From positions 293,034-357,033 of the forward strand of contig CAZGFX010000001.1 in the NCBI GenBank assembly GCA_964524845.1: 64,000 bases of DNA. The letters are read 5' to 3'. Each line of letters begins with the position of its first letter. Position 1 is the first letter of the stretch. A model generated the notes under the pieces. That model was not told the DNA's origin. It ran no database searches and was given only the letters and a program-made list of their open reading frames with translations. Source of the DNA: an uncultured Gammaproteobacteria bacterium (GTDB lineage: Bacteria; Patescibacteriota; Patescibacteriia; CAZGFX01). Shown here in pieces: positions 5,003 through 56,965 of this stretch. A program made the translations under genes and the position numbers.

Positions 5003-5758
5003 TTACGCCGCTTCGTTCCACTCATCGAGTGCTTTCATTTGCTTTTTGGTTGCTGTACTATTTTTTTTAATTTGTTCTTGATTGTCGAGAATAAATTTTT
5101 CAAATGAATCTTTTGTTTTTTTATTCAAATCTCCTTTTGCAAAACCAATATCAACAACAACTCCTAATAAAAAAAGGCTTTGTTCGTTGATAATTTCCGG
5201 TGTATTTTTTTGAATAACACCTTTATCTTTTTCAGGAAGTTTATTAATAAGTGTATTTAATAAAAAAATAGATGATTTTTTAAGATATTCTTGAGTAATA
5301 TTAATATCTTCGTCAGCTTCTTTATATTCTTTCTCTACACCAATTAAACTACCAGGCTTCTTTCCATTAATTACTTCTTCTAATTTTAATTTTTTAATAA
5401 GTTTAAATGCATATTTTTCAGCAATTTCTGATTTTTTATAAGAAGAACTATCTTTAATATTTGCTATTTCCTGTTCTATTAAAGGTAGTTTTCCTATACG
5501 TTCTGTTCGAGAAAAAAACATTAATTCCCGAAACTTGCTTTTTACATAATTTCCTAAATTTGAGTCATCTTTTTTCAATTCTGTAGAAATATCAAAAAAA
5601 TCCTCTTGTCGTGGCCTAGAAAGAGTTGCGTCTGATTCTCTTATTTGTGAGATCAGTGCGTCCTTTTCTAACAAATCAGCATCCTTATCTTTTCCACTTT
5701 CCTCTTTTCCATTAGGTGCCTCATAAGAACCAAGATGATCCATTTTTTCTATAGACAT
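5003..5758 (-). CDS. Hypothetical Lys/Glu-rich protein.
   Basis: 251-aa ORF with coding-like composition and no recognisable motif. Confidence 0.5.
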   Translation of the reverse strand: MSIEKMDHLGSYEAPNGKEESGKDKDADLLEKDALISQIRESDATLSRPRQEDFFDISTELKKDDSNLGNYVKSKFRELMFFSRTERIGKLPLIEQEIANIKDSSSYKKSEIAEKYAFKLIKKLKLEEVINGKKPGSLIGVEKEYKEADEDINITQEYLKKSSIFLLNTLINKLPEKDKGVIQKNTPEIINEQSLFLLGVVVDIGFAKGDLNKKTKDSFEKFILDNQEQIKKNSTATKKQMKALDEWNEAA

Positions 5759-9020: not shown

Positions 9021-9086
9021 ATTTAAATATTCGCTTATATTGTATCATGATCCGAAACGATAAAAAAGACATTATATATAAAATTA

Positions 9087-9367
9087 TTCGCGCCATGGTC
9101 GGAGATACCCCGCACGATTCACTCCGTTCATCTGCAGGTCACGTCGCTCGCGAGTGATGTGACGGGCCACGTCGTTCGCGCGAACGACGTGGCTGGGCGA
9201 GCCGGACAATAACGATACAATTCTATATAAAATATTTTCTGTGCAATATTATTCGCGCCATGGTCGGAGATACCCCGCACGATTCACTCCGTTCATCTGC
9301 GGGGCGAGCGGGACAACAACAATACAATTCTATATAAAATGTTTTCTGTGCAATATTGTTCGCGCCA
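9087..9367. repeat. Tandem array (2 full units plus the proximal flank) of a copy of the tRNA-Pro(GGG) 3' end with its flank. Each unit is a spacer, an inverted H-a hairpin (CCCCGCA-loop-TGCGGGG), then GTATCTCCGACCA+TGGCGCGAA. The distal unit carries a 66-bp insertion with two perfect palindromes.
   Basis: The 22-mer ttcgcgccatggtcggagatac occurs at 9087, 9252 and 9359 (the last being the real tRNA 3' end). Units are about 107 and 165 bp. The hairpin at 9273..9304 is an inverted copy of the H-a hairpin found on tRNA 5' flanks. Confidence 0.8.
9138..9192. repeat. Two adjacent CG-centred perfect or near-perfect palindromes (gtcacgtcgctcgcgagtgatgtgac 9138..9163 and ccacgtcgttcgcgcgaacgacgtgg 9167..9192) inserted into the stem of an H-a hairpin.
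   Basis: They are present in repeat unit 1 but absent from the otherwise identical unit 2, which has intact tgcgggg. The insertion point lies between ctgc and gggg. Confidence 0.75.
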
Positions 9368-9444
9368 TGGTCGGAGATACGGGACTTGAACCCGTGGCCT
9401 CAAGCACCCCATGCTTGCGCGCTAGCCAACTGCGCTAATCTCCG
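9368..9444 (-). tRNA. tRNA-Pro (anticodon GGG), CCA encoded.
   Basis: rc reads CGGAGAT-TA-GCGC-AGTTGGCTA-GCGC-G-CAAGC-ATGGGGT-GCTTG-AGGCC-ACGGG-TTCAAGT-CCCGT-ATCTCCG-A-CCA. Confidence 0.85.
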
Positions 9445-9554
9445 ATAAATAAGATTGATAGTTTATAAAATTTTTCTACTCATAAAGCAAAAATATTTTG
9501 GTAACCTGCCCCGCGGACGAGTGGTAACGAGTCTTGCGGGGCGCTAATCCCCGA
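9445..9554. repeat. tRNA 5'-flank module: AT-rich spacer (9445..9499), H-a hairpin ggtaacctgccccgc..gcggggc (9500..9542), then a 14-nt copy of the tRNA-Pro 5' end (gcgctaatccccga, 9541..9554).
   Basis: Same architecture as at the other tRNA loci. The copy has 1 mismatch to the adjacent tRNA 5' end. Confidence 0.8.
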
Positions 9555-9569
9555 CCACAGCACGAAGAA

Positions 9570-9854
9570 TTATAAACTCTTTTTATCTTTCGAATAAAAA
9601 TCTACTGATTCGTGAAATATATGCCGATAGATCTTTCTAATAAGAGGTTTTCTAACAAGGTGTTTTTCTGAAATACGATTAATAATTTCGTTTTCTCTTT
9701 TTTTATCCTTAACACCAATTGATTCTTCTTGTTTTATTTTCATAATTTCACGAACAATTTCAAATCGTTCCACAAGAAGCATACAAAGAGCATCATCAAT
9801 ACGATCAATGTGTTCTCTGTATTTTTTAATTTTCTTTTTTATTTCCTCTTCCAT
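9570..9854 (-). CDS. Chorismate mutase (AroQ class, CM_2).
   Basis: 94 aa. LRxxIDxIDxxLxxLLxxR signature (YREHIDRIDDALCMLLVERFEIVREI). Confidence 0.75.
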   Translation of the reverse strand: MEEEIKKKIKKYREHIDRIDDALCMLLVERFEIVREIMKIKQEESIGVKDKKRENEIINRISEKHLVRKPLIRKIYRHIFHESVDFYSKDKKSL

Positions 9855-9859
9855 ATCAA

Positions 9860-11041
9860 TTATATTTTTACAATCTTATATACTTCATCGTTTATTCGTA
9901 AAACACGATCGCACGGAAATGTTATTTTTGACTCCTCGTGATATTCAACACCTGAAACAAAGATTCTTTCTATGCCCGTTGTTGGGCCCTGAACATATAA
10001 TTCGTCTCCTATCATAATTGAACCTTCGCGAACAGTTACTTCGGCAATATCTGATTTTTTAAAATAATTACTAACTATGCCCACTCTCTCTTTTTTCTCG
10101 GTTGCCTGATTGTGTGGCTCAGTCCACCCTTCTACACCAGGAGTTCCGAACAAAAATCCTGTCGAAAACCCTCTGTTGTATACTCGTGTTACATCATTGA
10201 TAAGAGATTTCTTTAATTCGTCTGTGTACACACCATCTCGAATAGCATCAAGAGCGATACGATAAGAATGAGTGACGATAGATGCATATTCAGGGGATCT
10301 CCCTCGTCCTTCTATCTTTAATACATCAGCTCCTGTTTCAACAATTCTATCAAGAAACGAAAGAGTGCAAAGATCTTTTGGACTCATCACATACCCACAC
10401 CCCACGACAAGTTCTCCTCCTGTTTCTTCATCAACAATTTTATATTCTCTACGACATGGTTGAAGACACTCTCCTCTGTTTGCTGATTTTCCTTGTAAAA
10501 ACTGTGACATGAAACATCTTCCGGAAACTGACACACACATTGCTCCGTGACAAAAAACCTCTATTAGACAATTTGTTTTCTTTTTTATATCGGCAATTTG
10601 TTCAAGTGTGCACTCACGCGCAAGCACAATACATCGAGCGCCCTGTGTTTCATAAAAACGTGCCGCAACTGAATTTGATATGCTTGCTTGAGTCGAAATA
10701 TTAAAAGGCATCCCGTATTTTTTGCATGCCTCAATAACCGCAAAATCCCAACATATTACCGCATCGACATCAGCCTTTTTTAAATCACGAACCATTTCAT
10801 CAATTCTTTCAATTTCATTTTCATAAGCTATAACATTCAATGTAATGTGTATCTCAACATTTTTCTCGTGGGCTCGCTTCACTATATCCGGAAGTACTGA
10901 CATGTCAATTCCTTTTGAACTTACGCGCATATTAAGTTCTCCAACACCAAAATATACCGCGTCAGCTCCAGCCGCAAGCGCTGCCGAAAAAGAAATTTCG
11001 TCACGAACAGGCGCTAGAAGTTTTGGGATTTTTATCATCAT
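9860..11041 (-). CDS. Peptidase U32 family protein (YegQ/RlhA-TrhP-like, collagenase-like).
   Basis: 393 aa. N-terminal PELLAPV..A..AGADAVYFG motif and Cys-rich C-terminal region typical of U32. Confidence 0.75.
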   Translation of the reverse strand: MMIKIPKLLAPVRDEISFSAALAAGADAVYFGVGELNMRVSSKGIDMSVLPDIVKRAHEKNVEIHITLNVIAYENEIERIDEMVRDLKKADVDAVICWDFAVIEACKKYGMPFNISTQASISNSVAARFYETQGARCIVLARECTLEQIADIKKKTNCLIEVFCHGAMCVSVSGRCFMSQFLQGKSANRGECLQPCRREYKIVDEETGGELVVGCGYVMSPKDLCTLSFLDRIVETGADVLKIEGRGRSPEYASIVTHSYRIALDAIRDGVYTDELKKSLINDVTRVYNRGFSTGFLFGTPGVEGWTEPHNQATEKKERVGIVSNYFKKSDIAEVTVREGSIMIGDELYVQGPTTGIERIFVSGVEYHEESKITFPCDRVLRINDEVYKIVKI

Positions 11042-11127
11042 ACGACAATAAAGTTACGTGGAAATATTGTTTTTTGCAAGACCTTTATTTAAAAACCAAA
11101 ACAACTCTTTTAGAGAGCTGCTTTGTG

Positions 11128-11204
11128 TGGTCGGGGATATCGGACTTGAACCGACGGCCTTGCGCACCCGAAACGCACGCTCTAGCCAACTGAGCTAATC
11201 CCCG
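11128..11204 (-). tRNA. tRNA-Pro (anticodon CGG), CCA encoded.
   Basis: rc reads CGGGGAT-TA-GCTC-AGTTGGCTA-GAGC-G-TGCGT-TTCGGGT-GCGCA-AGGCC-GTCGG-TTCAAGT-CCGAT-ATCCCCG-A-CCA. Confidence 0.85.
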
Positions 11205-11711
11205 ATGAATAAATTAGATGAATGAACAAAACGTTTTTCTATTCATAAAATACTTATATTTTGGTAACCCGCCCCGCAGACGAATGTAATGAGTCGTGCG
11301 GGGAGCTAATCCCCGATGAATAAATTAGATGAATGAACAAAACGTTTTTCTATTCATAAAATACTTATATTTTGGTAACCCGCCCCGCAGACGAATGTAA
11401 TGAGTCGTGCGGGGAGCTAATCCCCGATGAAAAGCGACTTTTAAATGAAGTGCTATATAACGCTTGAGAAAACTTTAATAATTTGGTAACTGGTCCTCCG
11501 AAGCTTTAGCGTAGGAGGAAGCTCCAGCCATAGGCTGGTCAGCCTCTGGCTGAAATCCCCGATGAATAAATTAGATTAATGAACAAAACGTTTTTCTACT
11601 CATAAAACATTTATATCTTGGTAACCCGCCCCGTCACGTCACTCGCGAGCGACGTGACCCGTCACGTCACTCGCGAGTGACGTGATCCGCAGACGAACAA
11701 AAACATACACC
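11205..11711. repeat. Array of tRNA 5'-flank modules upstream of tRNA-Pro(CGG). Two identical 111-bp units cover 11205..11428 (spacer, H-a ggtaacccgccccgcagacgaatgtaatgagtcgtgcggggag, copy gctaatccccgat). A GC-rich structured block (11480..11549) ends in the copy aatccccgat. A third unit follows whose H-a (11619..) is interrupted by two 26-bp palindromes (11633..11658, 11661..11686).
   Basis: Exact direct repeats are visible in the sequence. The palindrome pair is inserted after ggtaacccgccccg, the equivalent position to the insertion at 9136. Confidence 0.85.
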
Positions 11712-20672: not shown

Positions 20673-20750
20673 TGGGGTGATCAACGGGGCTCGAACCCGC
20701 AACCTTCGGGACCACAACCCGATGCTCTAACCAATTGAGCTATGACCACC
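20673..20750 (-). tRNA. tRNA-His (anticodon GTG), with encoded G-1, C73 and CCA.
   Basis: rc reads G-GTGGTCA-TA-GCTC-AATTGGTTA-GAGC-A-TCGGG-TTGTGGT-CCCGA-AGGTT-GCGGG-TTCGAGC-CCCGT-TGATCAC-C-CCA. Confidence 0.85.
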
Positions 20751-21016
20751 ATGAAAAGTAATTTTATACGAGGAAATTATATCATATAACACTAACGCAG
20801 ATAGCTCGGTAACCCGCCCCGCAGATCGAACGAAAGTGAGATTGTGCGGGGAGCTATGACCACCATGAATAACTATGTGGAAACGAATTAATTATATCGA
20901 AATGATATAACATGGATAACTCGGTAACCCGCTCCGTCACGTCATTCGCGAACGGCGTGACCCGCGTAATTGAGCGAAGCGATGGATTTTGGTGGCTCCG
21001 CCACGAGCGAAGCGAG
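20751..21016. repeat. Two tRNA 5'-flank modules between tRNA-His and tRNA-Arg. Module 1 is a spacer, H-a (20808..20853) and the copy ctatgaccaccatg (20854..20867). Module 2 is a spacer and an H-a variant interrupted by the 26-bp palindrome gtcacgtcattcgcgaacggcgtgac (20936..20961), running into the tRNA-Arg 3' flank (gagcgaagcga-motif repeats).
   Basis: Direct sequence comparison with the modules at 9445, 11205 and 21093. The palindrome again sits after ggtaacccgc(t)ccg. Confidence 0.8.
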
Positions 21017-21092
21017 TGGCGCGCCGGGCAGGAATCGAACCTGCGACCTACTGCTTAGAAGGCAGTTGCTCTATCCACTGAGCTACCAGCGC
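21017..21092 (-). tRNA. tRNA-Arg (anticodon TCT), CCA encoded.
   Basis: rc reads GCGCTGG-TA-GCTC-AGTGGATA-GAGC-A-ACTGC-CTTCTAA-GCAGT-AGGTC-GCAGG-TTCGATT-CCTGC-CCGGCGC-G-CCA. Confidence 0.85.
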
Positions 21093-21243
21093 ATGAGAAG
21101 ATGTTTTCTAAATGATAAGTTACTTAATATCGGAGAAAACCACAATGGCTCGGCAACCCGCCCCGCGTAATTGAGCGAAGCGAAATGTTGCGGGGAGCCT
21201 TGCCCCGTAACACGCCGAAGGTGTGTGTACGAGGTACCAGCGC
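21093..21243. repeat. tRNA-Arg 5'-flank module: spacer, H-a variant ggcaacccgccccgc-gtaattgagcgaagcgaaatgtt-gcggggag (21152..21197), a 35-bp extra GC segment, then the copy gtaccagcgca.
   Basis: Same spacer/hairpin/tRNA-5'-copy architecture. The loop shares gagcgaagcga with sequence on the 3' side of tRNA-Arg. Confidence 0.75.
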
Positions 21244-21399
21244 ACAAGAATACAATTTCTAAATGACTGTGAAAAACACACGCATCATACATAAAAAAAA
21301 CAGATTAGTCAACGATATGTGTTTTTATTTTTAAGCTAATTTTAGACATCAAGCGGTGTTATCTTGTGACATAATCTATTAAAAAATATCATATCAAAA

Positions 21400-21831
21400 T
21401 CAGTTTTTTCTCAAAACTTTTTTAACATCAGTTATTGTTTTTTTGATTTGAGAATCTGTCATAACCAGTCTCTGCTTGTTTTTATGATCGAGATCTCCTA
21501 TACGATGATTTGGAATAATATGATAATGCATATGCGGTATGCTTTTAGCGCCATTTGTTCCTTCTCTAATAAGAATTGAATAATTGGAATAACCGAGACC
21601 TTCCATAATTTTTGCACCTCTAATAATTAAATTTTGTATTGCTCTGTTCTCGGTTGAAGTTAGTTTGAGAAATGACACAACGTGTCGTTTTGGTATAACA
21701 AGAAGATGATGACGATGATACGGTGCTATGGCATACGTAAGCATGGCTAATTTGTTTTCAATAATAAACCTTCCAACACTATTACAAAACGGACATCCTT
21801 TTATCTTTTTTCTATAAACACTATATAACAT
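21400..21831 (-). CDS. HIT (histidine triad) family hydrolase.
   Basis: 143 aa. HxHxHxx motif IPHMHYHIIP. Confidence 0.8.
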   Translation of the reverse strand: MLYSVYRKKIKGCPFCNSVGRFIIENKLAMLTYAIAPYHRHHLLVIPKRHVVSFLKLTSTENRAIQNLIIRGAKIMEGLGYSNYSILIREGTNGAKSIPHMHYHIIPNHRIGDLDHKNKQRLVMTDSQIKKTITDVKKVLRKN

Positions 21832-22004
21832 GATATTTATATAACATATTCAGTATAACGTATTAAGCTTAAGTTAAAAAGAAGTGTCAATAATATCACT
21901 ATCTTAACAAATGAAAAACCAGCAAGAAAGAGCCATTTTCTTTGAAGAAATAACTAAATTATGTTAGAATTAATAAGTATTTATGGGTAAAATATCAAAA
22001 ATAA

Positions 22005-24848
22005 ATGAATTTAAAATTACTTAAATTTTTATTTTGTTCTGCACTTATTGTTTTTTCAATTTGTTTATTTTCTCGTGTTTCAAATGCGGCTCCTGTCACG
22101 GTTGCCGCATTTGAATTAAATGGACTAATAGGAGATGAGGCAACTGTAACAGCAACGACGAACGATACTAATGTTTATACAGCAATACTATCCAGAGGTT
22201 CGGGCATTAATCCTTCGGTTCTTAACAATGCATTTTCATCAACCGCTTTCGTTGTCGGAGGAACAAAAACAGATGCGATAAGTAATAATGAATATTATCA
22301 GTTTGAACTCGAGACAAAATCGAAATATAAACTTTCTCTAAATTATATAAATCTTAATTTAAGAAGAAGTCCAACAGGCCCAAACGCATACCAATGGCAA
22401 TATAGTTTAGATGGTTTTGCTACTGCTGGAACAGACGTTGGCGCAGAAGGCTCTTATACAGGGACAGAAAACGCCGGTCTTGCTATGCCACAGGTTGTTC
22501 TTTCAGGAATTCCTTCTCTACAAAACCTCGAATCAGGTACAAGAGTTACGTTTAGATTATATGCATGGGGATCTACAAACTCAAGCGGAACACTAGGAAT
22601 AGGACGCTTGGCTGGAAATGATCTTTTAATTAATGGCAGTGTTGATTTAATTCTTGCTGCTGGTTTTGATCCAAATGGGCTACTCGGAAACGAAGCAACA
22701 TTCAATTCAACAACAACTCATGTTCGTCTAAACACATCAACTTTATCACGCGGAGTCGGAATAAATCCATCCGCTCTTGCAAATGCTTTTTCTGCAACTA
22801 CTTTCGTTGTTGGCGGAACAAAAGCAGATGCCATAAGTAATAATGAGTATTTTCAAGTTCAAATAGAGGCAAACACTGGGTATAATGTTTCTCTTAATTA
22901 CATTTTTTTTAATTTACGTCGAAGTGCCACAGGACCGAACGCATACCAATGGCAATATAGTCTTGATGGTTTTTCAACGTCCGGAACAGATGTAGGAGAT
23001 GAGGGATTATATACGGGAACAGGTACGAACGGGCTCGCGATGCCACAAATTAATTTATCTACTGTACCAGCATTACAAGGTGTAAAATCAGGAAATATAA
23101 TAACACTTAGACTTTATGCATGGGGAGCTACAAATGCAGGAGGTACTTTAGCAATTGGCAGATTAACCGGAGACGATTTGGATATATACGGATCATTTGC
23201 ATTAAATAATTATACATTAACTTACACGGCAGGAGTAAATGGATCTATTGTTGGTGTTTCGCCACAAACAGTTAATCATGGTAGTGATGGAAGCACTGTA
23301 ACTGCCTCTCCTAATCCTGGATATCATTTTGTTAACTGGAGCGATACATCAACTGCAAACCCAAGAACAGACACTAATGTAACAGGAAATATCTCAGTCA
23401 CAGCGAACTTTGCAATTAACACATATACATTAACTTACACGGCAGGAGTAAATGGATCTATTGTTGGTGTTTCGCCACAAACAGTTAATCATGGTAGTGA
23501 TGGAAGCACTGTAACTGCCTCTCCTAATCCTGGATATCATTTTGTTAACTGGAGCGATACATCAACTGCAAACCCAAGAACAGACACTAATGTAACAGGA
23601 AATATCTCAGTCACAGCGAACTTTGCAATTAACACATATACACTCACCTACACAGCAGGAGTCGGTGGATCAATAACAGGCATGTCCTCTCAAACAGTAA
23701 GTCATGGTAATGATGGTTCCGCAGTTACGGCAACTCCGAACGCCGGATACTCTTTTGTTGACTGGGATGATGGATTAAGAACTAGCACCAGAACTGACAC
23801 GAACATAACAGGAAACAAATCGGTTATAGCTACATTTCAGGTAGATAGACAATCGTCTTCATCCAGTGGCGGAGGAAGTTCAGCTGTATATTCTCCTCCG
23901 GGGTCTGGAACAGGATCTACGGATCGCATCATTCCAATGGATGAAACAAGAGATGTAAGGAACATAGAAACAGACGGAATAAATATTCTTGGTTATATAG
24001 GATCAAAGGCTGTTTTTGAAACAATAGAAAGTAAATCTTTTATAAACGGAAAACACTCGATAACAATTACAAATGTGGATCTTTTTAATAATATAGTTGT
24101 TATTCGCGTAGAATCGACTCCTCAGATAATAAGTCTAAAATTGAAAGAGTTGGCGTATGTTGATTTGGACGATGATCTTGTGCCTGATATATCAATTCAA
24201 TTTAATTCCATATATGTTAATCGAGTCGAACTTACAACAAAATCAATTGTGACTAAAAAAACTGGCGTCGCAACAACAAACCAAGAGATAACACAAACAA
24301 CAAGCAACTTACAAGCTTCTTGCAAACTTATATTTACACGAGATATTAAATCAGGCGCAACAGGAGACGATGTTAAAGAACTTCAAAAATACCTAAACTC
24401 AAAGGGCTTTATTATCACTGAAAAAGGTCCGGGAGCTCCCGGCAATGAGACTACGAAGTTTGGACGATTAACATACAACGCGCTTATCAAGTTTCAGAAA
24501 GCGAATAATATATCACCAATATCTGGAGTGCTTGATAGTACGACTAAAAAATATATAAAGTGCTCAGATGATAAACAAACAGAAACCGCGCCAAAACAAT
24601 CCACTTCGATAAAATTCACTCGCGATCTCAAACCTGGCATGACAGGAGATGATGTTAAAGAATTGCAAAAATATCTCAATACAAATAGCTTTATAATAAC
24701 GGACAAAGGTCCGGGAGCTCCCGGCAATGAGACTACGAAGTTTGGGCGATTAACATACAACGCACTTATCAAGTTTCAGAAAGCAAATAATATAACTCCT
24801 GCGAATGGATATCTGGATTCAACAACAAGAGAATTGCTGAATAAATAA
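22005..24848 (+). CDS. Large cell-surface protein. It has a signal peptide, 2 copies of a ~190-aa N-terminal domain, 3 Listeria-Bacteroides-type repeats (YTLTYTAGVNGSIVGVSPQTV...), a Ser/Gly linker and 2 C-terminal peptidoglycan-binding (PG_binding_1) domains.
   Basis: 947 aa. Internal repeats are visible in the protein. The C-terminal repeats (GATGDDVKELQKYLNSKGF...GNETTKFGRLTYNALIKFQKANNI) match the PGBD consensus. Confidence 0.7.
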   Translation: MNLKLLKFLFCSALIVFSICLFSRVSNAAPVTVAAFELNGLIGDEATVTATTNDTNVYTAILSRGSGINPSVLNNAFSSTAFVVGGTKTDAISNNEYYQFELETKSKYKLSLNYINLNLRRSPTGPNAYQWQYSLDGFATAGTDVGAEGSYTGTENAGLAMPQVVLSGIPSLQNLESGTRVTFRLYAWGSTNSSGTLGIGRLAGNDLLINGSVDLILAAGFDPNGLLGNEATFNSTTTHVRLNTSTLSRGVGINPSALANAFSATTFVVGGTKADAISNNEYFQVQIEANTGYNVSLNYIFFNLRRSATGPNAYQWQYSLDGFSTSGTDVGDEGLYTGTGTNGLAMPQINLSTVPALQGVKSGNIITLRLYAWGATNAGGTLAIGRLTGDDLDIYGSFALNNYTLTYTAGVNGSIVGVSPQTVNHGSDGSTVTASPNPGYHFVNWSDTSTANPRTDTNVTGNISVTANFAINTYTLTYTAGVNGSIVGVSPQTVNHGSDGSTVTASPNPGYHFVNWSDTSTANPRTDTNVTGNISVTANFAINTYTLTYTAGVGGSITGMSSQTVSHGNDGSAVTATPNAGYSFVDWDDGLRTSTRTDTNITGNKSVIATFQVDRQSSSSSGGGSSAVYSPPGSGTGSTDRIIPMDETRDVRNIETDGINILGYIGSKAVFETIESKSFINGKHSITITNVDLFNNIVVIRVESTPQIISLKLKELAYVDLDDDLVPDISIQFNSIYVNRVELTTKSIVTKKTGVATTNQEITQTTSNLQASCKLIFTRDIKSGATGDDVKELQKYLNSKGFIITEKGPGAPGNETTKFGRLTYNALIKFQKANNISPISGVLDSTTKKYIKCSDDKQTETAPKQSTSIKFTRDLKPGMTGDDVKELQKYLNTNSFIITDKGPGAPGNETTKFGRLTYNALIKFQKANNITPANGYLDSTTRELLNK
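23206..23836 (+). repeat. Three tandem ~210-bp intragenic DNA repeats, the first two nearly identical, encoding the Listeria-Bacteroides repeat domains.
   Basis: Direct repeats begin at 23206, 23416 and 23626. Units 1 and 2 are almost 100% identical at the DNA level. Confidence 0.85.
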
Positions 24849-29060: not shown

Positions 29061-30304
29061 TTGCAGGCTCTTTGTTAAGTGCCCGCGCCGATTTGTGGGG
29101 AGGGAATGATATGACCCTCGACACTACTCGTGATGCCCTTCCTCTAGGAGGGGTCGGCTGTTTTTTCGTGATACTTCTTTGTCATAAACGATTCACTTCA
29201 TAACTTGATATTGCTACCTCATCATGAAATCCTGGTGTGTTTCGTTTTTTTTGTTGATCGTGAGACCGACAAAAAGACATTGAAGCATCACTAGCGCGAT
29301 ACAGCCTTTTTTTTGTAATTTTTCACTGATAGGAGGACATATAAGAGATTTTTGCGCTTAGTATGGCGACTATCTTATATGGTGAAAAATTACCTTTGTA
29401 ACCATCCAAACAGATATTACTATCTTCACATCTTCCGATTTAAGCTTTTTTAAGGCTATGGTCGTTGTCTTTCGCACAATAGACATAAGGATGTGTGGAC
29501 AATTACTGCAGCAGTTTTTTGTTTCTTGGTCAGGTTTGCTTTTTAGTGCATACCCAGTTGTAACCAACCAAGTTAAACAAGTGCTTAATACAATGAGCAA
29601 GTGGGTACTCAACCGCATTTTTCCAAACATTGTGGTGTAAGAAAAAATGTTTTTTCTTCTACGATTGCTCGCAAAAGAGGATGTGTACCTTTTACCTTAG
29701 AAAAACAGTATTACTTACACGGTGCAACTTAGATACTGTATCACTTTTAGGGTGATGTGTTGCTCTGTGCAATTTCCAGAAAAAATTTGCTTTTCTTTTC
29801 TCTGTGATCATCGTTTCGTATCTTAACGATGGCGTATACCGTTTTGGCGGTGTTGTATGAGTTTACTACTAAACCCTTTCCTTTCCCGCACACTCATGCT
29901 TCTCCAAAATGTCTAAGATTTCTTATTGAAACAACATCATCTTAAACACCTATACTGCAAGATTCTTCTTTCGTTTTGATGCGTTACCGCATTTTATATT
30001 TTGGAAGAACTCCGGAGAACCTAAAGAAACTTTGTTTTCGTTTCTTTTGTTATTAAGAACATTCCTTCTTTTGGAAGGTGCTTTCCTAGTTGAAAAGCGT
30101 AAATACATACTACCAGCCAAAAATGATTATGCCAACCCTCATATCCACGAAATATATACAAAATACCCACACCTCTTTTTGGCTAATTGTAGCTATTATT
30201 GCCACCTTCCTGTGGATTGTGGTGTTATAATATATTGCATTTTAACTTAATAAATATGTTTTTATCATACGAAAAACCTGTTATTATACAGATATACATA
30301 TTAT

Positions 30305-36205: not shown

Positions 36206-39200
36206 TTATTCATCAAAACGGGCAATTGGGATATCTATCTTTTCCCCCTGTTTCTTCGCAAACAATCCTGTTTCAGTTATTTTAAGAATTGCTTTTTTAC
36301 CATCAATAATAACATTTGGATACTTGCCACTCAAAGACATGTTTTTAAAAGAGTCTTCTGTTTCAATTCTCTGTCCACTAATCATAATATTGTCACCTGG
36401 ATGCAAACCATCTTTACCAAAAACAATATCAAGCTTCCTTCCACCTAATTGATCAAGAAGAAGACACTCCTTTACGCCATTCCCTTTGTCCATGGTAAGC
36501 AAAACATTATCAGATTTATTAAAATAATCCGCTTCTATTTTTTCTGCGCCGGACGAATACTCATCGAGATCAATTTTCATTCCTTTTGGGGTTATGACTA
36601 TATTTCCTTCTTCGATTTTAAAATCGTTTTTCTCAACAACAAATTTACTATCAAGTGTCGCTGATCCTTTTGTATCAACTGTTTCTTTCGCTAAATCGGT
36701 TTTTCCTTTGGTATCGATAACATCTTTTTTATCAGTTGTTTCAACGACCTTATCCGTCTTTTCTCCTGTTGTTTTAACTTCTTTTTTATCAATGATATCT
36801 TCTTTTGCCGTAGTTCCGACATCTTTCTTTGCGTTCTCGTCAATAATATTCTTATCATCAACACTGCCACCACCTTTCGTTTCTAATGTTTGATCTTTAT
36901 GTATTTCATCTGAAGAAATATTGTTTTTTGTTCCAATATCTTTTGTTTCAATTGTTTTTGAAACAATCTCGTCTTTTTCAATAGGTGTATGAATTTCTTC
37001 TCCGTTTATTTTTATAATATTTCTATGCATATCAGCATCATATTCAACCGTAACATCGTCCCCCGGATGGATAATAAGTTTGTCCGAGATGTGGTTCTGA
37101 TGCAAAATCTCAGCGGTAAGACGATCGACCGTATGTTGGGCATCTTCAGTTAATGGCATACCCTCTGAATCAAAGTCGTTTTCTGAAAGACCGAGTAACT
37201 TATAACCTAGCATTCCGCGAAACTTCACCTGTTCCGCAACTTCTTTATTAATAATTTTCCACATACTGTCTCCTGCTTGTACTTCTATTGGTTTCAGTGT
37301 AGAAAGATTTGTTTCTTTTACTTCGTTTACAATATCTCCGTGTGATATATTTGTTGTTTCAAGTGTTGTCTCAACTGGCGCAGTAAGCACGGTGTGTTCA
37401 GTTGGTTTAATAATGTTTTCCAAACCGCCACCGGAAGATGTCGCGTTGTGTTCTTCTGATAATTTCTGAATTATTTCTTGCTTTTGATCAACAAGTTTTT
37501 TCACTTCGTCCAATTGTTTTTCAACATTTTCTTTTGCGGATACATCTAAATTATTTTCTTCATTTATCGTTTTTTCTATCTTTTCTTGTGCCTCAACAAT
37601 CGCATTGGATTTAAAAGACACATCTATATCTTCTCCGAAAAACTTATGAAGAAGATCATAAACGACCGGTCCTGCTATACCAACTCCAGTCGCAACGCGT
37701 CCAAGTGCTTGAGCAAAATCTCTTCCTTTTGTAGTGCTCTCTGAACTAAAACCACGCCCAAAAAGCGCGCGAGCGGTTTCGAAAGTGCTTTTCCCATATC
37801 CTTTCATGATCGTGCCGATACGAGATGAGCGTTCTTCTTTCTCTTTGGTTATCAGTTCCTCTGTGCTAAAAAAGTCTCTTTTCCCCGTTTTCGTATTGAT
37901 TACTTTTTCTTCAATTGCTTTTTCCTTTTCTTTTTGTATTTCAAAAAATCTATTCATCTTTATAGTTTTCAGTGAGCCAATAACTTCTTTTGCTTTTTCT
38001 GATACAGGATTTCCTTCCTCATCAAAATCTTCCTTTGAGAGTTTGTGTTTCTCTTTGTTCACAATGACTTCGTGACGAGCTAAAATCTCAGCGCGTTTTT
38101 CCTCATTCCCTTTCAGTTTTTCAAGTGTTTCTATTTTTCTTCTTAGGTACTTCTGCTTCTGTCCTTTTATATTATATTCTGTGCTTTCTCCTTTTCCTTT
38201 TTGATAGAGTGATATTCCAGCATACACGGCACCACGCACACCACGTCCTATAGGACCGGTGATAAGTGAGAGTGGCGTCAAAATACCTGTAATGGCATTT
38301 TTAACCACATCAATCGTCTTTACTTTTGATTCTAGATAATGAGTGAGCACGGACGACTGTTTCATCGAAGTCCTAAATCCGAGTCGTTGTTGATTGTTCG
38401 TGTGCTCTGCAATCATATACGCAAGTTGTTTTTCCAGTTCTTCTTTTTTCTCTTCAGGAAGTTTTGTACTTTCTTTTATCGCGGTTTTGTATTCTTCAAT
38501 TGATTCCCTTAGTGCTTTTTGAGTTTCTGTTTCTTCTTTTTCTCTGTTTTCTTTTTTAATAAACGCAGAAACTTCTATTCCTGACGCTTCCTTTTCTGCA
38601 CGACGTTTTTGAGCATACTCTAAAACCATATTCATCGCCTCTTGTATACGCTCTTTTTCTTTTCCTATTTCTTTCCTCTCGTCAAGAAATGTACGAATGT
38701 CTCCGCTCTTATTATAAATAGCATCATATGCATCAACCCAAAACTTCGCTCCTGTGCCTCGTAAAACACCTTGTTTTATAAACGAATAAATTTTATTCTC
38801 CACAACTTTTTTATCCTCAGGAGAGATAATCGGAGTTTCTGTCTTTGTTTCAATATTGGTATCAACAGAAGTTTCTATTACTGGTAACTCTGTTTCCGGT
38901 TGTTTTTCGGACATTTCTTGTTGTAAAAGATTTGTTTTTCCTTCTATTTCTTTCGTATCTTTATCAATTTTTTGTTCGTTTTCAGAAATAGTATTTTTTG
39001 TATTTTCTTCCAAAAATTCTTTATCAGCACTAGCTTTAATAAGATCTGAGAGTAGTTCTTCTGATGTTTTTTCTTTCTCTCCGTATTCTTCAGATAATTT
39101 TGATACGAAATCTCCTCTTTTTTGATTTTCCTCAAATCCTTCACTTATAGCTGTATTTTCACCCAAATCCAAATCATCAAAATCCCCCTTATCTATTGTT

Positions 39201-40072
39201 GGTGTTTTTATAAACGAACCAAAGTCATCTTTTGTTTCTTGTTTCGTTTTATTTTTCGCACTAGATCTAGAAAACCCTGGTACCGAGACGGCTTTTCTTC
39301 CTGTAATAGGGTCGTATCTTCCTCCTGATGATATTGAAAATATAGTTCTTGATGGTTTTTTAATAGTTTTGTTTTCTGATTCTTTTTTATTAACTGAAGT
39401 TTCTGTTTTTGGCGCGTTTTTCTTCTCAATAACAGCAATAATTTCCTCTATGATCGCGTCAATATCATCAAGGTGTTTTTTATATTCCTTGTTTTCAACG
39501 ATTGTAATAATATTACGCAAAATTCCTGCTTGATTTATATAATACGCAAGTTCTGGGCTTTCAAGATCAAAATCTCCACGAATGTCTCTTACTCTATCCA
39601 GAAAAGACGTCATATCTTTTTTCATCTGCGCCATATCTTTTAAAAACGCTGTTGCTACATCTTCCGCGATGGCTTTTAATTTTCTTTCAATCTTGTTAAT
39701 TGTCTTTTTTATATCATCTGTATTAGAAATAATTTTTTCGTTACTTTCGTCTTCTATAATATTAAAATACTCTCTTCTTTTTTCCGCTAATCGCATAAGA
39801 AGATCCTCTTTCGTTCCTGTTTTTATATTTCTCAGGTCTTTCTCTATCAAATCAAGCCTGTTTTTTAATAACAAAGCTCGCGACACATTGTCGATATCGC
39901 CTTCTTTTACAAATCCTATTTCTTTTGAGGCAACACCTTCTTTTACAATATCTAAAATCTCCGCTAATTTTTTTGTAGCATCTTCCTCGATCGACACGGG
40001 TTCCATAACAGACGTTTCAGGAGAAGTTGTCGGAATGCCGATTTCTATATGTTTTTTTTCTTCGATATTCAT
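36206..40072 (-). CDS. Giant (1288 aa) Lys/Glu-rich coiled-coil protein of unknown function.
   Basis: Continuous ORF with extreme K/E/D content and long heptad-like stretches. No NTPase motifs seen. Confidence 0.7.
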   Translation of the reverse strand: MNIEEKKHIEIGIPTTSPETSVMEPVSIEEDATKKLAEILDIVKEGVASKEIGFVKEGDIDNVSRALLLKNRLDLIEKDLRNIKTGTKEDLLMRLAEKRREYFNIIEDESNEKIISNTDDIKKTINKIERKLKAIAEDVATAFLKDMAQMKKDMTSFLDRVRDIRGDFDLESPELAYYINQAGILRNIITIVENKEYKKHLDDIDAIIEEIIAVIEKKNAPKTETSVNKKESENKTIKKPSRTIFSISSGGRYDPITGRKAVSVPGFSRSSAKNKTKQETKDDFGSFIKTPTIDKGDFDDLDLGENTAISEGFEENQKRGDFVSKLSEEYGEKEKTSEELLSDLIKASADKEFLEENTKNTISENEQKIDKDTKEIEGKTNLLQQEMSEKQPETELPVIETSVDTNIETKTETPIISPEDKKVVENKIYSFIKQGVLRGTGAKFWVDAYDAIYNKSGDIRTFLDERKEIGKEKERIQEAMNMVLEYAQKRRAEKEASGIEVSAFIKKENREKEETETQKALRESIEEYKTAIKESTKLPEEKKEELEKQLAYMIAEHTNNQQRLGFRTSMKQSSVLTHYLESKVKTIDVVKNAITGILTPLSLITGPIGRGVRGAVYAGISLYQKGKGESTEYNIKGQKQKYLRRKIETLEKLKGNEEKRAEILARHEVIVNKEKHKLSKEDFDEEGNPVSEKAKEVIGSLKTIKMNRFFEIQKEKEKAIEEKVINTKTGKRDFFSTEELITKEKEERSSRIGTIMKGYGKSTFETARALFGRGFSSESTTKGRDFAQALGRVATGVGIAGPVVYDLLHKFFGEDIDVSFKSNAIVEAQEKIEKTINEENNLDVSAKENVEKQLDEVKKLVDQKQEIIQKLSEEHNATSSGGGLENIIKPTEHTVLTAPVETTLETTNISHGDIVNEVKETNLSTLKPIEVQAGDSMWKIINKEVAEQVKFRGMLGYKLLGLSENDFDSEGMPLTEDAQHTVDRLTAEILHQNHISDKLIIHPGDDVTVEYDADMHRNIIKINGEEIHTPIEKDEIVSKTIETKDIGTKNNISSDEIHKDQTLETKGGGSVDDKNIIDENAKKDVGTTAKEDIIDKKEVKTTGEKTDKVVETTDKKDVIDTKGKTDLAKETVDTKGSATLDSKFVVEKNDFKIEEGNIVITPKGMKIDLDEYSSGAEKIEADYFNKSDNVLLTMDKGNGVKECLLLDQLGGRKLDIVFGKDGLHPGDNIMISGQRIETEDSFKNMSLSGKYPNVIIDGKKAILKITETGLFAKKQGEKIDIPIARFDE

Positions 40073-40558: not shown

Positions 40559-42262
40559 TTAATTTTCTGGCTCAGCAGAACCCGCGCCACCTTCAACAGA
40601 AGATTCTGGCGATACGGGATTAATTGATGGAAGTGTTTCTATAATGCCTGATTTTTCAATAAGCGGAACCACTCCTCCTCCAGATATTTTCTCATCAAGA
40701 ATTTCTTTCACAATAGGAACAACTATATTTTTCTGATAGAAGGGTTGATCACCGGGAATATTACTCAAAGGAAAAACAAGTGCAGGAACAAATAAATCAT
40801 CTCCTGTTCCTTTTTCATAATTATACTTAAAATATCTCATATACATGAGAGATGGTGTACCCAGATTAATATCGTGTATATTTGCTCCGCTAGGGCCATA
40901 GAACATACCAAACGTGTTTCCTCCCTGCTCAGCAAAATTAATTATCTTTTTCACATCCTTCTCGACAGCATAAGACGACCCCTCATAAGTCTGTGTTGTA
41001 ATCGAATTTACATTCGTTACTTTCTTTTGTCGTATGTCAATTGAAATATTGATTCCATATGATATACCGGAATCTTCAAAAACTTTTTTTCCATCAATCA
41101 AAAGTGGAAATGACACACTCATTGATTCTGGTATATATACAGAGCTCTTATCCTGAGCTGTTTCATACATAATTCTCCAATCGTCCGAAACTTCCGGATC
41201 CCCATAATATGACATATCTATTCCTTTTTCTATGACAAATTGTTTTGCAATAGAAATAAGTTCATCATTAGAAAGAACTTCTGATGGCTTGATTCCATCA
41301 TATGGCTGAATACAACGCACAGCGTCACCACCACATCTCGTGGCATCAGACTGTGGCCAACGTAACCAGTTTTGTGATATAAAAACAACTCCTTCATCAA
41401 ATTGAGCATTGATAATATATCCGAAATCTTCGTCTTGAGCAGTCTCAATCATTCGCAAACGATTGTTTGTGAATTTTTTTAAATCAATGCCAGGAAGTTT
41501 GAATCCGGAAATAAGTTTGATCACATCTGTCGGACGTTCCGTTGATTTGATTCTTCGAAGAACAGAAAGCTCGTCTTCATTAATTGTTATTGGGTCTCCT
41601 TTGTAAACAAATCTATATGAAGGATACTCGTATGGTGGCATAGAACTTCCTTGTGAGCCATCAGATACGGCACTTCCTGAAACAGGAGCCGATGGTGAAG
41701 CTGATGTTCCACCACCACCTCCGAAACCCTCAACAACATTAGTAGAAACATTGTCTCTAACGCTATCATTTCCAAACGATCTTGATACTGCAATATCACG
41801 AGTCGGAGCAACAGAAGATAATGTCTCTTTTGTTCCCAAGAAACCTGAACCACCCTCGGTTTTAAGAGATCCAAATGCGTTTTTTGCAATAGTACGAACC
41901 TCTTGTTTCACTGGTCCGAGCGCGAGATCACTCTCAATAGGAAGTGGTGGTCGCGAGAATCTGTAATACATTATAGGTATCAAAAGTACTGCGCATATCG
42001 CCGCGCCGCTAACAACATAAAAAAACTTTTTCATACTATGAAATTGTGAGAGCAGTGAAACCGGTGGTTTTGCCGCGACTGAAACGGCGGCGCGGCTCAT
42101 AAGCTCTGATCGAACACGCTTCACAAAATTTTCATCACACTTCGTATCAGGACGAGCGGATATCATTCGCTCAAGCACAGAAACAACTTCTTGTTCATGC
42201 TCACGAAGCGAAGGATCTATTAAATATAGTTCATCGAGAATTGTGCGAAGCTTGTTATCCAT
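40559..42262 (-). CDS. Putative anti-sigma factor with a cytoplasmic N-domain, a single TM helix and a large extracytoplasmic domain.
   Basis: Its start is 2 nt downstream of the stop of the ECF sigma gene at 42264. Topology is N-terminal ~90 aa, then FFYVVSGAAICAVLLIPIMYY (TM), then a ~450-aa outside domain. No family signature seen. Confidence 0.55.
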   Translation of the reverse strand: MDNKLRTILDELYLIDPSLREHEQEVVSVLERMISARPDTKCDENFVKRVRSELMSRAAVSVAAKPPVSLLSQFHSMKKFFYVVSGAAICAVLLIPIMYYRFSRPPLPIESDLALGPVKQEVRTIAKNAFGSLKTEGGSGFLGTKETLSSVAPTRDIAVSRSFGNDSVRDNVSTNVVEGFGGGGGTSASPSAPVSGSAVSDGSQGSSMPPYEYPSYRFVYKGDPITINEDELSVLRRIKSTERPTDVIKLISGFKLPGIDLKKFTNNRLRMIETAQDEDFGYIINAQFDEGVVFISQNWLRWPQSDATRCGGDAVRCIQPYDGIKPSEVLSNDELISIAKQFVIEKGIDMSYYGDPEVSDDWRIMYETAQDKSSVYIPESMSVSFPLLIDGKKVFEDSGISYGINISIDIRQKKVTNVNSITTQTYEGSSYAVEKDVKKIINFAEQGGNTFGMFYGPSGANIHDINLGTPSLMYMRYFKYNYEKGTGDDLFVPALVFPLSNIPGDQPFYQKNIVVPIVKEILDEKISGGGVVPLIEKSGIIETLPSINPVSPESSVEGGAGSAEPEN

Positions 42263-54034: not shown

Positions 54035-54144
54035 TGAAAAAATATATTTATTTAGACAAAGCAAAAAAGACATAGTCTGGCTGTGCCGGCCCGAACCCTG
54101 AACTTGTTTCAGGGGTAGGCTGGCCGTGCCATCCGAAGCGCGAA

Positions 54145-54232
54145 GCGCGTAGGATGGAGGAGAGGAAGGGATTCGAACCCTCGATCCCTTGCGGGACACA
54201 GCGTTTCGAGTGCTGCGCATTCAACCACTCTG
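54145..54232 (-). tRNA. tRNA-Ser (anticodon CGA), class II, CCA encoded, unusual U73 discriminator.
   Basis: rc reads GGAGAGG-TG-GCA-GAGTGGTTGAA-TGC-G-CAGCA-CTCGAAA-CGCTG-TGTCCCGCAAGGGATC-GAGGG-TTCGAAT-CCCTT-CCTCTCC-T-CCA. The anticodon loop is identical to E. coli serU. There is an A31-C39 mismatch. Confidence 0.75.
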
Positions 54233-54459
54233 CCACCTCTCCATATGAGAAAATATTACAACCAAAGTATACAATTAAACAAGAAAAATGTTTTAAACAA
54301 GGAGCTTGCCCTGTAGTTCGAGCGTAAGCGAGAACGTACCAGGGCCACCTCTCCATATGAGAAAATATTACAACCAAAGTATACAATTAAACAAGAAAAA
54401 TGTTTTAAACAAGGAGCTTGCCCTGTAGTTCGAGCGTAAGCGAGAACGTACCAGGGCCA
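54233..54459. repeat. Two identical 112-bp tRNA 5'-flank modules upstream of tRNA-Ser(CGA). Each is a spacer, the H-b hairpin ggagcttGCCCTGtagttcgagcgtaagcgagaacgtacCAGGGC, and the copy cacctctccat.
   Basis: Exact direct repeat, which also generates identical peptide stretches in spurious ORFs 54048..54386 and 54256..54516. The spacer carries TTGTTT-N18-TAATAT (promoter-like) in tRNA orientation. Confidence 0.85.
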
Positions 54460-54594
54460 CCTCTCCATATTTAAAAACAATGTTATAAAGAAACAATTGT
54501 AGATTATCAAAATCATTATTTAAAAACAACTACAAAAAGCGCGTTTCATCGCAAAGAAAATCCCCGCCTGCTTTTGTTGCAAACGGGGATAAAA

Positions 54595-56866: not shown

Positions 56867-56965
56867 GTGCAATAACTCCACAATACTACACGAAAAAACG
56901 CTTTATGCCAACATGAAAAACGGTTGATTTTGATACAAAAATGTGTTAATTTCCTATTGTTCTCT

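Follow-up and report, generated by a model that had tools for sequence, protein, structure and literature searches.

Hairpin modules with copies of tRNA ends at the edges of tRNA genes in a 64-kb stretch of a Patescibacteria genome

This study concerns a 64-kb stretch of DNA (the window; positions 293,034 to 357,033 of contig CAZGFX010000001.1, 36% GC) from an uncultured member of the Patescibacteriota, and a set of short composite modules found there at the edges of tRNA genes. The window contains nine tRNA genes, on which the calls by ARAGORN and Rfam agree. Seven of them are preceded by one to four units of 97-152 bp, in which a copy of the first nucleotides of the adjoining tRNA is joined to a GC-rich hairpin and an AT-rich spacer. 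The other two, tRNA-Leu and tRNA-Pro(TGG), have neither start copy nor hairpin and are provided with plain promoters and terminators. The same distribution had been given in a preliminary description of this DNA, made from its letters alone, which drew attention to the range 9445-11711. Two ordinary genes, for a chorismate mutase (9570-9854) and a U32 peptidase (9860-11041), lie inside that range. The features of the module-bearing loci are listed below; H-a, H-b, H1 and H2 denote hairpins and P a palindrome described further on, and every tRNA gene in the list was called by both programs.

9087-9108 (-): third copy of a 22-nt repeat (13-nt 3′ end of tRNA-Pro(GGG), GTATCTCCGACCA, plus 9 nt of trailer); exact 22-mer, present three times
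9108-9209 (+): inverted H-a, split by two nested P (9138-9163, 9166-9193); covariance model R1 match at 9108-9139
9252-9273 (-): second copy of the 22-nt repeat (tRNA-Pro(GGG) 3′ end plus trailer), 107 nt past the tRNA end
9273-9312 (+): H-a (9273-9304) and tail CGAGCGGG in mirror orientation, left foot abutting the 3′-end copy; 40.8 bits
9313-9367 (-): 55-nt trailer F1 of tRNA-Pro(GGG); repeat family of 95 nt, 82%
9210-9260 and, truncated, 9044-9095 (-): F1 trailer repeats after each 3′-end copy
9368-9444 (-): tRNA-Pro(GGG)
9445-9553 (-): Pro-GGG 5′ module: spacer 9445-9499, tail 9500-9508, H-a 9509-9541, copy 9541-9553
11128-11204 (-): tRNA-Pro(CGG)
11205-11426 (-): two 100% identical 111-bp Pro-CGG units of spacer, tail GGGTTACC, H-a (11272-11303, 11383-11414) and 13-nt copy (11303-11315, 11414-11426)
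11427-11562 (-): diverged Pro-CGG unit 3 with another spacer, tail CCAGTTACC, three different hairpins and a 9-nt copy (11553-11562)
11563-11700 (-): distal Pro-CGG unit 4: spacer, tail 11620-11628, 3′ arm of H-a with two P inside it (11633-11658, 11662-11685), no 5′-end copy
20673-20749 (-): tRNA-His; G-1 encoded at 20750
20750-20869 (-): His unit: spacer with TGATATAAT box, tail 20808-20816, H-a 20817-20851, 19-nt repeat 20851-20869; 44.2 bits
20870-21020 (-): distal His unit and Arg trailer: spacer with GATATAAT, tail 20923-20931, P 20936-20961
20972-20982 (-): H-a remnant with TCGCTTCGCTC in the distal His unit
21000-21020 (-): Arg trailer hairpin GCCAC-TCGCTTCGCTC-GTGGC, pairing the CCA end
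21017-21092 (-): tRNA-Arg(TCT)
21093-21243 (-): Arg unit with two hairpins: spacer 21093-21151, tail GGGTTGCC 21152-21160, H-a 21161-21195, H-b 21203-21234, 9-nt 5′-end copy 21235-21243; z=-3.1
21244-21312 (-): native Arg leader (imperfect 36-nt repeat, including the 5′-end copy, up to 21266)
21284-21312 (-): sigma-70-like promoter TTGACT-17-TATGAT upstream of the Arg 5′-end copy
54129-54157 (-): tRNA-Ser(CGA) trailer hairpin CCATCC-...GCTTCGC...-GGATGG, pairing the CCA end
54155-54242 (-): tRNA-Ser(CGA)
54243-54470 (-): two 100% identical 112-bp Ser-CGA units: spacer with TTGTTT-18-TAATAT, H-b (54308-54345, 54420-54457), 15-nt repeat of ATAT plus 11 nt of tRNA (54344-54358, 54456-54470)
56407-56495 (-): tRNA-Ser(GGA)
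56496-56890 (-): four Ser-GGA units of two kinds
56496-56603 (-): Ser-GGA unit U1: hairpin H1 56560-56594 (z=-5.0), copy 56593-56603
56604-56700 (-): Ser-GGA unit U2: H2 core 56656-56671, copy 56689-56700
56701-56797 (-): Ser-GGA unit U3: H2′ core 56755-56770, copy decayed
56798-56890 (-): Ser-GGA unit U4, a remnant 89% identical to the U1 spacer
56964-57123 (+): Ile unit: 17-nt repeat 56964-56980 (8 nt of leader plus 9 nt of tRNA), H-b 56981-57020, H-a 57024-57056, tail 57057-57066, spacer 57067-57123 with TGATATAAT
57124-57200 (+): tRNA-Ile(TAT)

Modules at both edges of tRNA genes

Read from the outside towards the gene, an upstream unit consists of a tRNA-start copy of 9-13 nt (preceded by 3-8 nt of leader), the GC-rich hairpin, in units of the H-a type a tail (CGGGTTACC), and an AT-rich spacer of 55-65 nt that ends at the next copy or at the genuine tRNA. 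At tRNA-Pro(CGG) the 13-nt copy occurs twice, at -111 and -222, and a third copy is degenerate. The tRNA-His copy (13 nt plus G-1 and TTCAT, making a 19-nt repeat) lies at -114, that of tRNA-Arg (9 nt) at -151 and that of tRNA-Ile (9 nt plus 8 nt of leader) at -152. Copies of 11 nt plus ATAT are found at -112 and -224 of tRNA-Ser(CGA), copies of 11 and 12 nt at -108 and -205 of tRNA-Ser(GGA), and a copy matching at 12 of 13 nt at -109 of tRNA-Pro(GGG). The preliminary figure of 11-17 nt needs correction, the copies being made of 9-13 nt of tRNA plus leader bases. Each copy matches the neighbouring tRNA only, a specificity that had been named beforehand as one of the points on which to check the idea. 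Hairpin and copy are strictly paired: both occur at all seven module-bearing tRNAs and neither at the other two. The hairpin tail GGGGCGGGTTACC (up to 2 mismatches) is present eight times in the window, against 0.2 occurrences expected, always inside a module; no further hairpin of this kind lies elsewhere in the 64 kb, all copies being within 230 nt of a tRNA. By GC skew the minus strand is the leading strand, and the modules follow the orientation of the tRNA on both strands, as had been proposed.

Not all units are of the same age. Those repeated in tandem at tRNA-Pro(CGG) and tRNA-Ser(CGA) are indeed 100% identical, over 111 nt (11192-11413) and 112 nt (54232-54455), respectively, which indicates that amplification at these two loci was recent. 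Decay with age is apparent in units 3-4 of tRNA-Pro(CGG) and units 3-4 of tRNA-Ser(GGA). The copy upstream of tRNA-Pro(GGG) retains the ancestral G4, as found in tRNA-Pro(CGG), while tRNA-Pro(GGG) itself now has A4; this module is therefore old, and homogenisation is not acting on its copy. Two Logan contigs from SRR12133403 match the window at 9271-11221 and 21047-23240 with 0 mismatches (the Pro-GGG 5′ module is identical in contig L001, the Arg unit in L134). Since these two independent contigs reproduce the Pro and Arg modules exactly, the modules are no assembly artefact. In the collections searched, the host is represented only by short Logan contigs. Repeats of this kind break short-read assemblies, both Logan contigs ending at a repeat or tRNA edge, and in annotation their tRNA-fragment direct repeats mimic the attachment (att) sites of genomic islands.

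A mirror-image architecture, missed at first, occupies positions 9087-9367 on the 3′ side of tRNA-Pro(GGG). The order there is tRNA, 55-nt trailer, inverted H-a, 13-nt copy of the 3′ end, trailer, hairpin and third copy. Whether upstream or downstream of the tRNA, it is always the left foot of the hairpin that adjoins the tRNA fragment, and the tail is turned towards the tRNA. The pattern is genuine and has solid statistical backing, and it is wider than first reported, involving both tRNA ends, nested palindromes and related genomes (see below).

The direct repeats on the 5′ side measure 9, 14, 14, 15, 17, 19 and about 36 nt; the one on the 3′ side is exact over at least 22 nt and extends over 95 nt at 82%. 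Their inner edge is fixed (+9 to +13 on the 5′ side, 64/65 on the 3′ side) and coincides with the boundaries of the acceptor-stem strands with the D-arm or T-arm. The outer edge varies between 0 and -27. A constant inner edge combined with a variable outer edge argues against a fixed staggered cut. A target duplication of about 67 nt was considered and rejected, as the flank beyond the outermost copy shows no significant homology to the proximal spacer (z up to 1.6), nor does the 3′ trailer to the reverse complement of the 5′ spacer. The tetranucleotide GCTC precedes H-a even where no tRNA copy adjoins it (Arg and Ile) and equals the D-stem strand of tRNA-His and tRNA-Pro(CGG), which makes it a 4-nt junction microhomology. 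In the scheme discussed below, a return switch of template could make use of the leader ends ACTTTTCAT (His) and CTTTTCGT (Ile).

Hairpins, spacers and related genomes

At least 14 hairpins of 32-40 nt are present in the window, in both orientations and with compensatory pairs. They share a common design: an outer GC stem, a middle stem of 3-4 bp, an invariant TC/TC internal loop and a 2-bp apical stem closed by a tetraloop. Compensatory changes distinguish the middle stems from one another, and in the apical pairs G-C is exchanged for A-U (6:4) and C-G for U-A (8:2). Seen from the opposite strand, this core consists of tandem G-A plus GNRA-type loops. The 11-mer TCGCTTCGCTC occurs four times in the window, all on the tRNA strand and at most 81 nt from a tRNA. 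Some of these occurrences are in 3′ trailers, where the stem pairs the CCA end. Two more are found behind tRNA-Arg(TCG) of an Abawacabacteria genome. A conserved hairpin motif near tRNAs in at least two lineages of the Candidate Phyla Radiation (CPR) may mark a processing, termination or recognition signal.

Trailer hairpins involving the CCA end form a group of their own, in the window (21000-21020, 54129-54157, 57201-57235) as well as in other CPR contigs (L128 9643-9778, L125 1-49). Their 5′ strand is the CCA end of the tRNA, followed by a loop resembling CTCGCTTCGCTCG and by TGGC-NNN-GCCA, with a second "GCCA"; they may represent a conserved processing or termination signal. In the related contig L132, a covariance model identified an H-like hairpin, CCCCGCAGAATTCACTTCGATCAAGTACGGGG, in a spacer away from any tRNA (5254-5285, minus strand), suggesting that the hairpin family is dispersed, in the manner of repetitive extragenic palindromic (REP) sequences, in related genomes. 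The arms of H-a (CCCCGCAAC.../...CGCGGGG; 21161-21195, 9509-9541) look like the two termini, 3′ and 5′, of an initiator tRNA from bacteria such as E. coli (tRNA-fMet).

Three different H-a hairpins contain the element P, a perfect palindrome of 26-28 nt (GTCACGTCACTCGCGAGTGACGTGAC and variants), single or doubled, and always nested at one position of the 3′ arm (GCGG^GG). Its copies lie at 9138-9163, 9166-9193, 11633-11658, 11662-11685 and 20936-20961. From its position, P looks like a second, nested, site-specific palindromic insertion. Database searches found no counterpart of the hairpins. Gapped H-a patterns gave only chance matches in GC-rich DNA in genome, metagenome and viral contig collections; blastn against phages and plasmids returned no similar sequence; only the nine tRNAs reached gathering scores in Rfam 15, permissive searches adding matches at chance level. 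Literature searches for an equivalent element retrieved nothing relevant.

Spacers fall into three groups that do not align with one another: His, distal His and Ile (z=4.3 and 10.6), Pro-CGG and Pro-GGG (z=5.9), and Ser-CGA and Ser-GGA (z=4.1). In all three, the base of the hairpin is 63-67 nt from the tRNA. The His and Ile hairpins are identical at 31 of 33 nt, although the acceptor stems of the two tRNAs are unrelated. Because these cassettes are homologous and the tRNAs differ, the hairpin and spacer must have been copied between loci, gaining the local tRNA 5′ end each time.

The preliminary description had further seen promoter-like hexamers in the spacers. Conserved boxes are visible: extended -10 boxes, TGATATAAT, at His and Ile, and TAATAT at Ser. 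Three spacers (His unit 1, distal His and Ile) have kept the box GATATAAT unaltered, despite being only about 65-78% alike in the rest of their sequence, and the Ser spacers retain TTGTAATAT. A scan for consensus sigma-70 sites, however, showed no excess in the modules, and for this reason the spacers are best regarded as putative promoters. At Arg and Ser-CGA, the outermost copy is preceded by strong -35/-10 pairs. The -10 regions of His and Ile are nearly palindromic. In each of the identical Pro-CGG units there is also a promoter-like site antisense to the tRNA, TGAACA-17-TAAAAT (11223-11251 and 11334-11362, plus strand), directed into the hairpin and into the antisense of the copied tRNA end.

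Orthologous loci were sought with the help of the U32 peptidase, which is 63-65% identical to its best homologues (from the Patescibacteria Abawacabacteria, Uhrbacteria and Magasanikbacteria). The comparators, about 130 kb in all, are contigs with U32 homologues, none related at strain level. In these contigs tRNA-Pro(CGG) is often close by, preceded by a conserved promoter of the extended -10 type, TTGYTATAGTC. The flank of this gene exists in four states: snap-back copy, decayed, different version and empty. In L122, L123/L124 and L132, a 9-nt tRNA-start copy lies 12-14 nt past the -10 box, immediately followed by its own inverted complement, the two making an AT-rich, snap-back-like hairpin; a leader of about 55 nt comes next. 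The same leader is found in L127, with copy and hairpin decayed or deleted. The leader of L130 is another, longer one, which contains part of a copy (GGGCTAT), a hairpin of a different kind and repeated TTGTATCTTG; that of L131 is short (46 nt) and has no copy. The comparison of orthologous loci suggested in the preliminary description thus does reveal presence and absence at tRNA-Pro(CGG), and these four states imply that events recurred at this gene with unrelated hairpins and that their products were lost again. No end copies accompany the other tRNAs (Thr, Tyr, Glu, Arg) in the comparators, in which one locus among 12 tRNAs is affected. The density of modules in the window must therefore be lineage-specific.

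A coordinated change was observed among the relatives. Position 5 of tRNA-Pro(CGG) is T in L123 and C in L122 and L132, and the upstream copy and its hairpin partner (A versus G) change along with it (L123 9149-9231; L122 8472-8554; L132 3069-3151). Neutral decay does not explain the three coordinated changes in L123.

Origin of the modules

The modules fit no family with which they were compared, save the loose class of tyrT-type tRNA-terminus repeats and REP-like palindromes. The earlier statement that no described element has this architecture was too strong. In E. coli K-12, three copies of the 19-nt 3′ end of tRNA-Tyr, spaced by 178 bp, lie downstream of the tyrT-tyrV operon, within the RttR (rtT)/tpr region, and each copy is directly preceded by a GC-rich hairpin sequence, GCGAAGCGCGCAGCGC. 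Repeats of the tyrT type have been known since the late 1970s. This closest known system resembles the 3′ modules of Pro-GGG (trailer, hairpin, 13-nt 3′-end copy) in having tandem flank units with an exact tRNA terminus, and the 5′ modules are its mirror image, with promoter-like spacers. It differs in being confined to one locus and to the 3′ side, with a copy that starts in the T-loop, whereas in the window the modules are mostly on the 5′ side, affect seven of nine tRNAs, share a hairpin family and break at an acceptor-strand boundary. REP sequences and bacterial interspersed mosaic elements are likewise GC-rich imperfect palindromes of 30-40 nt, intergenic, clustered, in either orientation and with covarying stems. 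Unlike them, the hairpins described here have no GTAG-type head and no REP-associated tyrosine transposase (RAYT) in the window, where they occur only near tRNAs and always joined to a tRNA-end copy; we know of no REP that duplicates tRNA ends. The Correia elements of Neisseria also are noncoding, multi-copy intergenic units, of about 100-150 bp, bringing promoter-like boxes and hairpins. Correia elements possess 26-bp terminal inverted repeats and a fixed TA duplication; the modules have no terminal inverted repeats, their repeats measure 9-36 nt and insertion is strictly at tRNA ends.

Two further comparisons bear on mechanism. Quasi-palindrome template switching, fork stalling and template switching (FoSTeS) and microhomology-mediated break-induced replication (MMBIR) share with the modules a fixed point of departure at a structured site, microhomology, templated inserts that are sometimes inverted, flanking duplications of variable length and snap-back hairpins (as in L122, L123 and L132). 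These processes have been defined experimentally in E. coli, yeast and human, whereas here we infer them from sequence. To our knowledge, no case has been described in which one hairpin family is used recurrently at tRNA genes. At tRNA att sites, too, a direct repeat of part of the tRNA brackets inserted DNA and the gene is regenerated. Such sites differ in lying in the anticodon loop, T-loop or 3′ end and in receiving kilobases of DNA with an integrase, as opposed to about 100 bp without genes at the 5′ acceptor edge.

As a tentative preference, to which we assign a probability of about 0.45, the modules are interpreted as scars that repeated copying and insertion has left at the edges of tRNA genes. 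At a fork or in the repair of a break, DNA synthesis would stall at the structured D-arm or T-arm of a tRNA gene, and the 3′ end would switch template to the foot of an H hairpin, at the same or another tRNA locus and on either strand. Hairpin and spacer would be copied before a return at a variable point outside the tRNA, yielding an intact tRNA and a direct repeat of variable length. Unequal recombination or slippage between the new direct repeats would then amplify the unit. Each event would leave behind a direct repeat with a REP-like GC hairpin between the copies and, on the 5′ side, an added AT-rich promoter/leader spacer. Insertions would be tolerated because RNase P and 3′ trimming would free the mature tRNA of all flanking sequence. 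As the stable GC hairpin separates the old promoter from the tRNA, the cassettes retained would be those that have a -10 box of their own; the arrays probably act as tandem promoters. Template switching would account for the repeat edges, the microhomology, the mirror symmetry and the inverted 3′ hairpin, as well as for the cross-locus cassettes, the snap-back hairpins in relatives, the recurrence and the decay. If correct, structured tRNA edges would be hotspots at which, even in a streamlined CPR genome, small hairpin repeats and copies of promoters are inserted and amplified time and again, the origin of tyrT-like repeats would become apparent, and single-copy tRNA genes could change their promoter dosage quickly.

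Several points weigh against copying by template switch. Each step of the mechanism is one that we infer. The hairpin must come from another locus at Pro-GGG, Arg, Ile and Ser-CGA, since no hairpin lies beyond the outermost copy there, and purely local slippage fails to explain its source. The strict pairing of hairpin and copy and the restriction of hairpins to tRNAs in the window are equally expected of a targeted element. The contrast between seven of nine tRNAs here and one locus among 12 in relatives suggests a lineage-specific agent. The apical motif is more conserved than the spacers and is shared with the Abawacabacteria genome, which hints at function or recognition, and the joint change of tRNA, copy and hairpin partner in L123 is not predicted by neutral scars. 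Because module abundance, constant hairpin/copy pairing and apical conservation all stay unexplained by template switching, an enzyme acting in trans at the hairpin foot is a serious rival. A selected role as promoter or insulator is compatible with either origin.

The rival just mentioned, doubtful though we consider it, holds that a non-autonomous cassette of hairpin and promoter spacer is mobilised by an enzyme encoded elsewhere in the genome, either an HUH/Y1 nuclease (RAYT- or IS200/IS605-like) cutting single-stranded DNA at hairpin feet or a site-specific recombinase. Such an enzyme would connect H, by its left foot, with the D-arm or T-arm hairpin, likewise at the foot, and the tRNA end would become duplicated during repair. 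This agrees with junctions at hairpin feet on the respective strand, on both tRNA sides and always on the left of H, with the homology of the His and Ile cassettes despite their different tRNAs, and with the constant association of hairpin and copy at seven of nine tRNAs. The presence of P at one position of H three times would likewise exemplify site-specific palindrome insertion in this genome, and an apical motif conserved through compensatory pairs is what a protein-recognised hairpin would show. None of the 50 open reading frames (ORFs) of the window, however, encodes a transposase, HUH domain or recombinase, in line with the earlier remark that integrase and transposase genes are missing there; there are also no inverted repeats at the termini, the outer edge of the repeats shows no conserved motif for cleavage, and repeat length varies. 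Orientation is fixed neither to replication nor to strand, unlike that of IS200/IS605, the same architecture exists with unrelated hairpins in relatives, and none of the genome, metagenome and viral collections contains the exact H-a pattern. A more specific version, which we judge improbable, is a cassette of GC hairpin and promoter targeted to tRNA arms, strand-transferred by the enzyme to the D-arm or T-arm foot; regeneration of the tRNA end by duplication would render insertion harmless and allow spread between tRNA genes. Mobilisation by an enzyme would amount to a new kind of tRNA-targeted mobile promoter, with tRNA cloverleaf DNA as landing site. Of the mobile insertion with target duplication initially envisaged, what stands is that the units behave like copy-inserted cassettes bracketed by a direct repeat of the tRNA 5′ end. 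The proposed agents, a miniature inverted-repeat transposable element (MITE) or an integrase, do not agree with the lack of terminal inverted repeats, the lack of a recombinase among the 50 ORFs of the window, the variable repeat length, the mirror hairpin on the 3′ side and the unrelated hairpins of relatives.

That the modules are primarily functional seems rather unlikely. They would then be tandem promoter/leader cassettes selected to raise or tune the expression of single-copy tRNAs, with hairpins that block read-through and divergent antisense transcription, in the manner of insulators or terminators, or that act as signals for processing or stabilisation, and with the tRNA-end copy retained as part of the initially transcribed region. 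The intact GATATAAT in three diverged spacers and the TTGTAATAT kept in the Ser spacers are in keeping with such a role, as is the constant hairpin-tRNA distance, close to the size of a complete promoter plus leader. So are the position of TCGCTTCGCTC, always on the tRNA strand near tRNAs and also behind the Abawacabacteria tRNA-Arg, a Pro-GGG module that predates the G4/A4 divergence of the two Pro genes, and the joint change in L123. The consensus promoter scan nevertheless gave no enrichment, and the proximal Arg spacer contains no good promoter, the strong one lying upstream of the copy. The hairpin is inverted on the 3′ side and is therefore unlikely to have a single function at the RNA level in sense transcripts. 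Copies of tRNA ends decay with age, tRNA-Leu and tRNA-Pro(TGG) manage without modules, and the module has been lost in relatives L127 and L131. Pairing of the copy with the hairpin tail is no better for cognate than for non-cognate combinations; a designed acceptor-like helix between the two was rejected on these duplex energies.

It is very improbable that the units are decayed tandem duplicates of whole tRNA genes, of which acceptor-end bases and a remodelled hairpin survive. The tail GCGGGTT-AC-CGAG does resemble the T-arm of tRNA-His (GCGGGTTCGAG) at a similar offset, the 82-83-nt period in L122/L123 is about one tRNA length, and the leader holds TTCGGAA, the anticodon loop of tRNA-Pro(CGG). 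Such an origin is largely refuted by the Rfam tRNA model, which finds nothing in the modules up to E of 10, by module interiors that do not resemble their own tRNA above shuffles (z up to 2.5, not for the cognate) and by the leaders of L122, L123 and L127 (z<1 against their own tRNA); moreover, one hairpin is common to modules of different tRNAs and is GC-rich with compensatory changes, unlike decay. Scarcely credible is the derivation of the direct repeats from attL/attR remnants of deleted integrative elements (phages or integrative and conjugative elements) at the tRNA 5′ end. A direct repeat of a tRNA segment around foreign-looking DNA is their classical signature, but there is no integrase or cargo, only about 100 bp of noncoding DNA separating the repeats, and seven loci would each need an identical, near-complete deletion. 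Identical tandem units and mirror 3′ modules would be unexpected, and phage and plasmid collections hold nothing similar. The edge between 5′ acceptor strand and D-arm is not a usual attachment site either.

Other candidates were rejected on structural grounds. Strand-specific insertion of the IS200/IS605 type does not suit an orientation that follows the tRNA and not the replication strand. As regards a MITE, the hairpin is internal, and the two ends of a unit, a hairpin foot and the AT-rich end of a leader, do not form inverted repeats. An integron attC site would have paired R″/R′ core sites (RYYYAAC ... GTTRRRY) closing each hairpin; GTTACC occurs on one side of H-a only, with no complementary RYYYAAC, and H-b, H1 and H2 are devoid of it. 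A reading as clustered regularly interspaced short palindromic repeats (CRISPR) or a guide-RNA-like system fails for want of an effector gene, and the "guide" would target its own locus; the "spacers" of such an array would be the same AT-rich promoter sequence and self-matching tRNA end.

Other features of the window

Pfam scans of the 50 ORFs identified housekeeping and envelope genes, a ParE/Phd pair and an extracytoplasmic function (ECF) sigma factor; no integrase, transposase, recombinase, HUH, reverse transcriptase, cas, TnpB or IscB domain was found among them. The chorismate mutase ORF ends just 16 nt short of the Pro-GGG 5′-end copy (9554-9572), leaving this module no room for an upstream promoter of its own. 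The pair formed by the U32 and chorismate mutase (CM_2) genes is kept in Abawacabacteria (L128), where the tRNAs are absent. The ParE toxin and Phd/YefM-like antitoxin genes (55279-55802, minus strand) lie between the two tRNA-Ser loci. Two large ORFs of 1288 and 567 aa (36206-40072 and 40559-42262, minus strand) have no Pfam match and are adjoined by the ECF sigma factor gene; AT skew is strongly negative (-0.26) in the 36-40 kb segment. Finally, a GC-rich structured intergenic element of about 90 nt (29075-29165, plus strand) ends in a hairpin and T-run and has no Rfam match. It is possibly an unannotated small RNA, and the sequence GGAGGGGTCG inside it equals the first 10 nt of tRNA-Ser(GGA).

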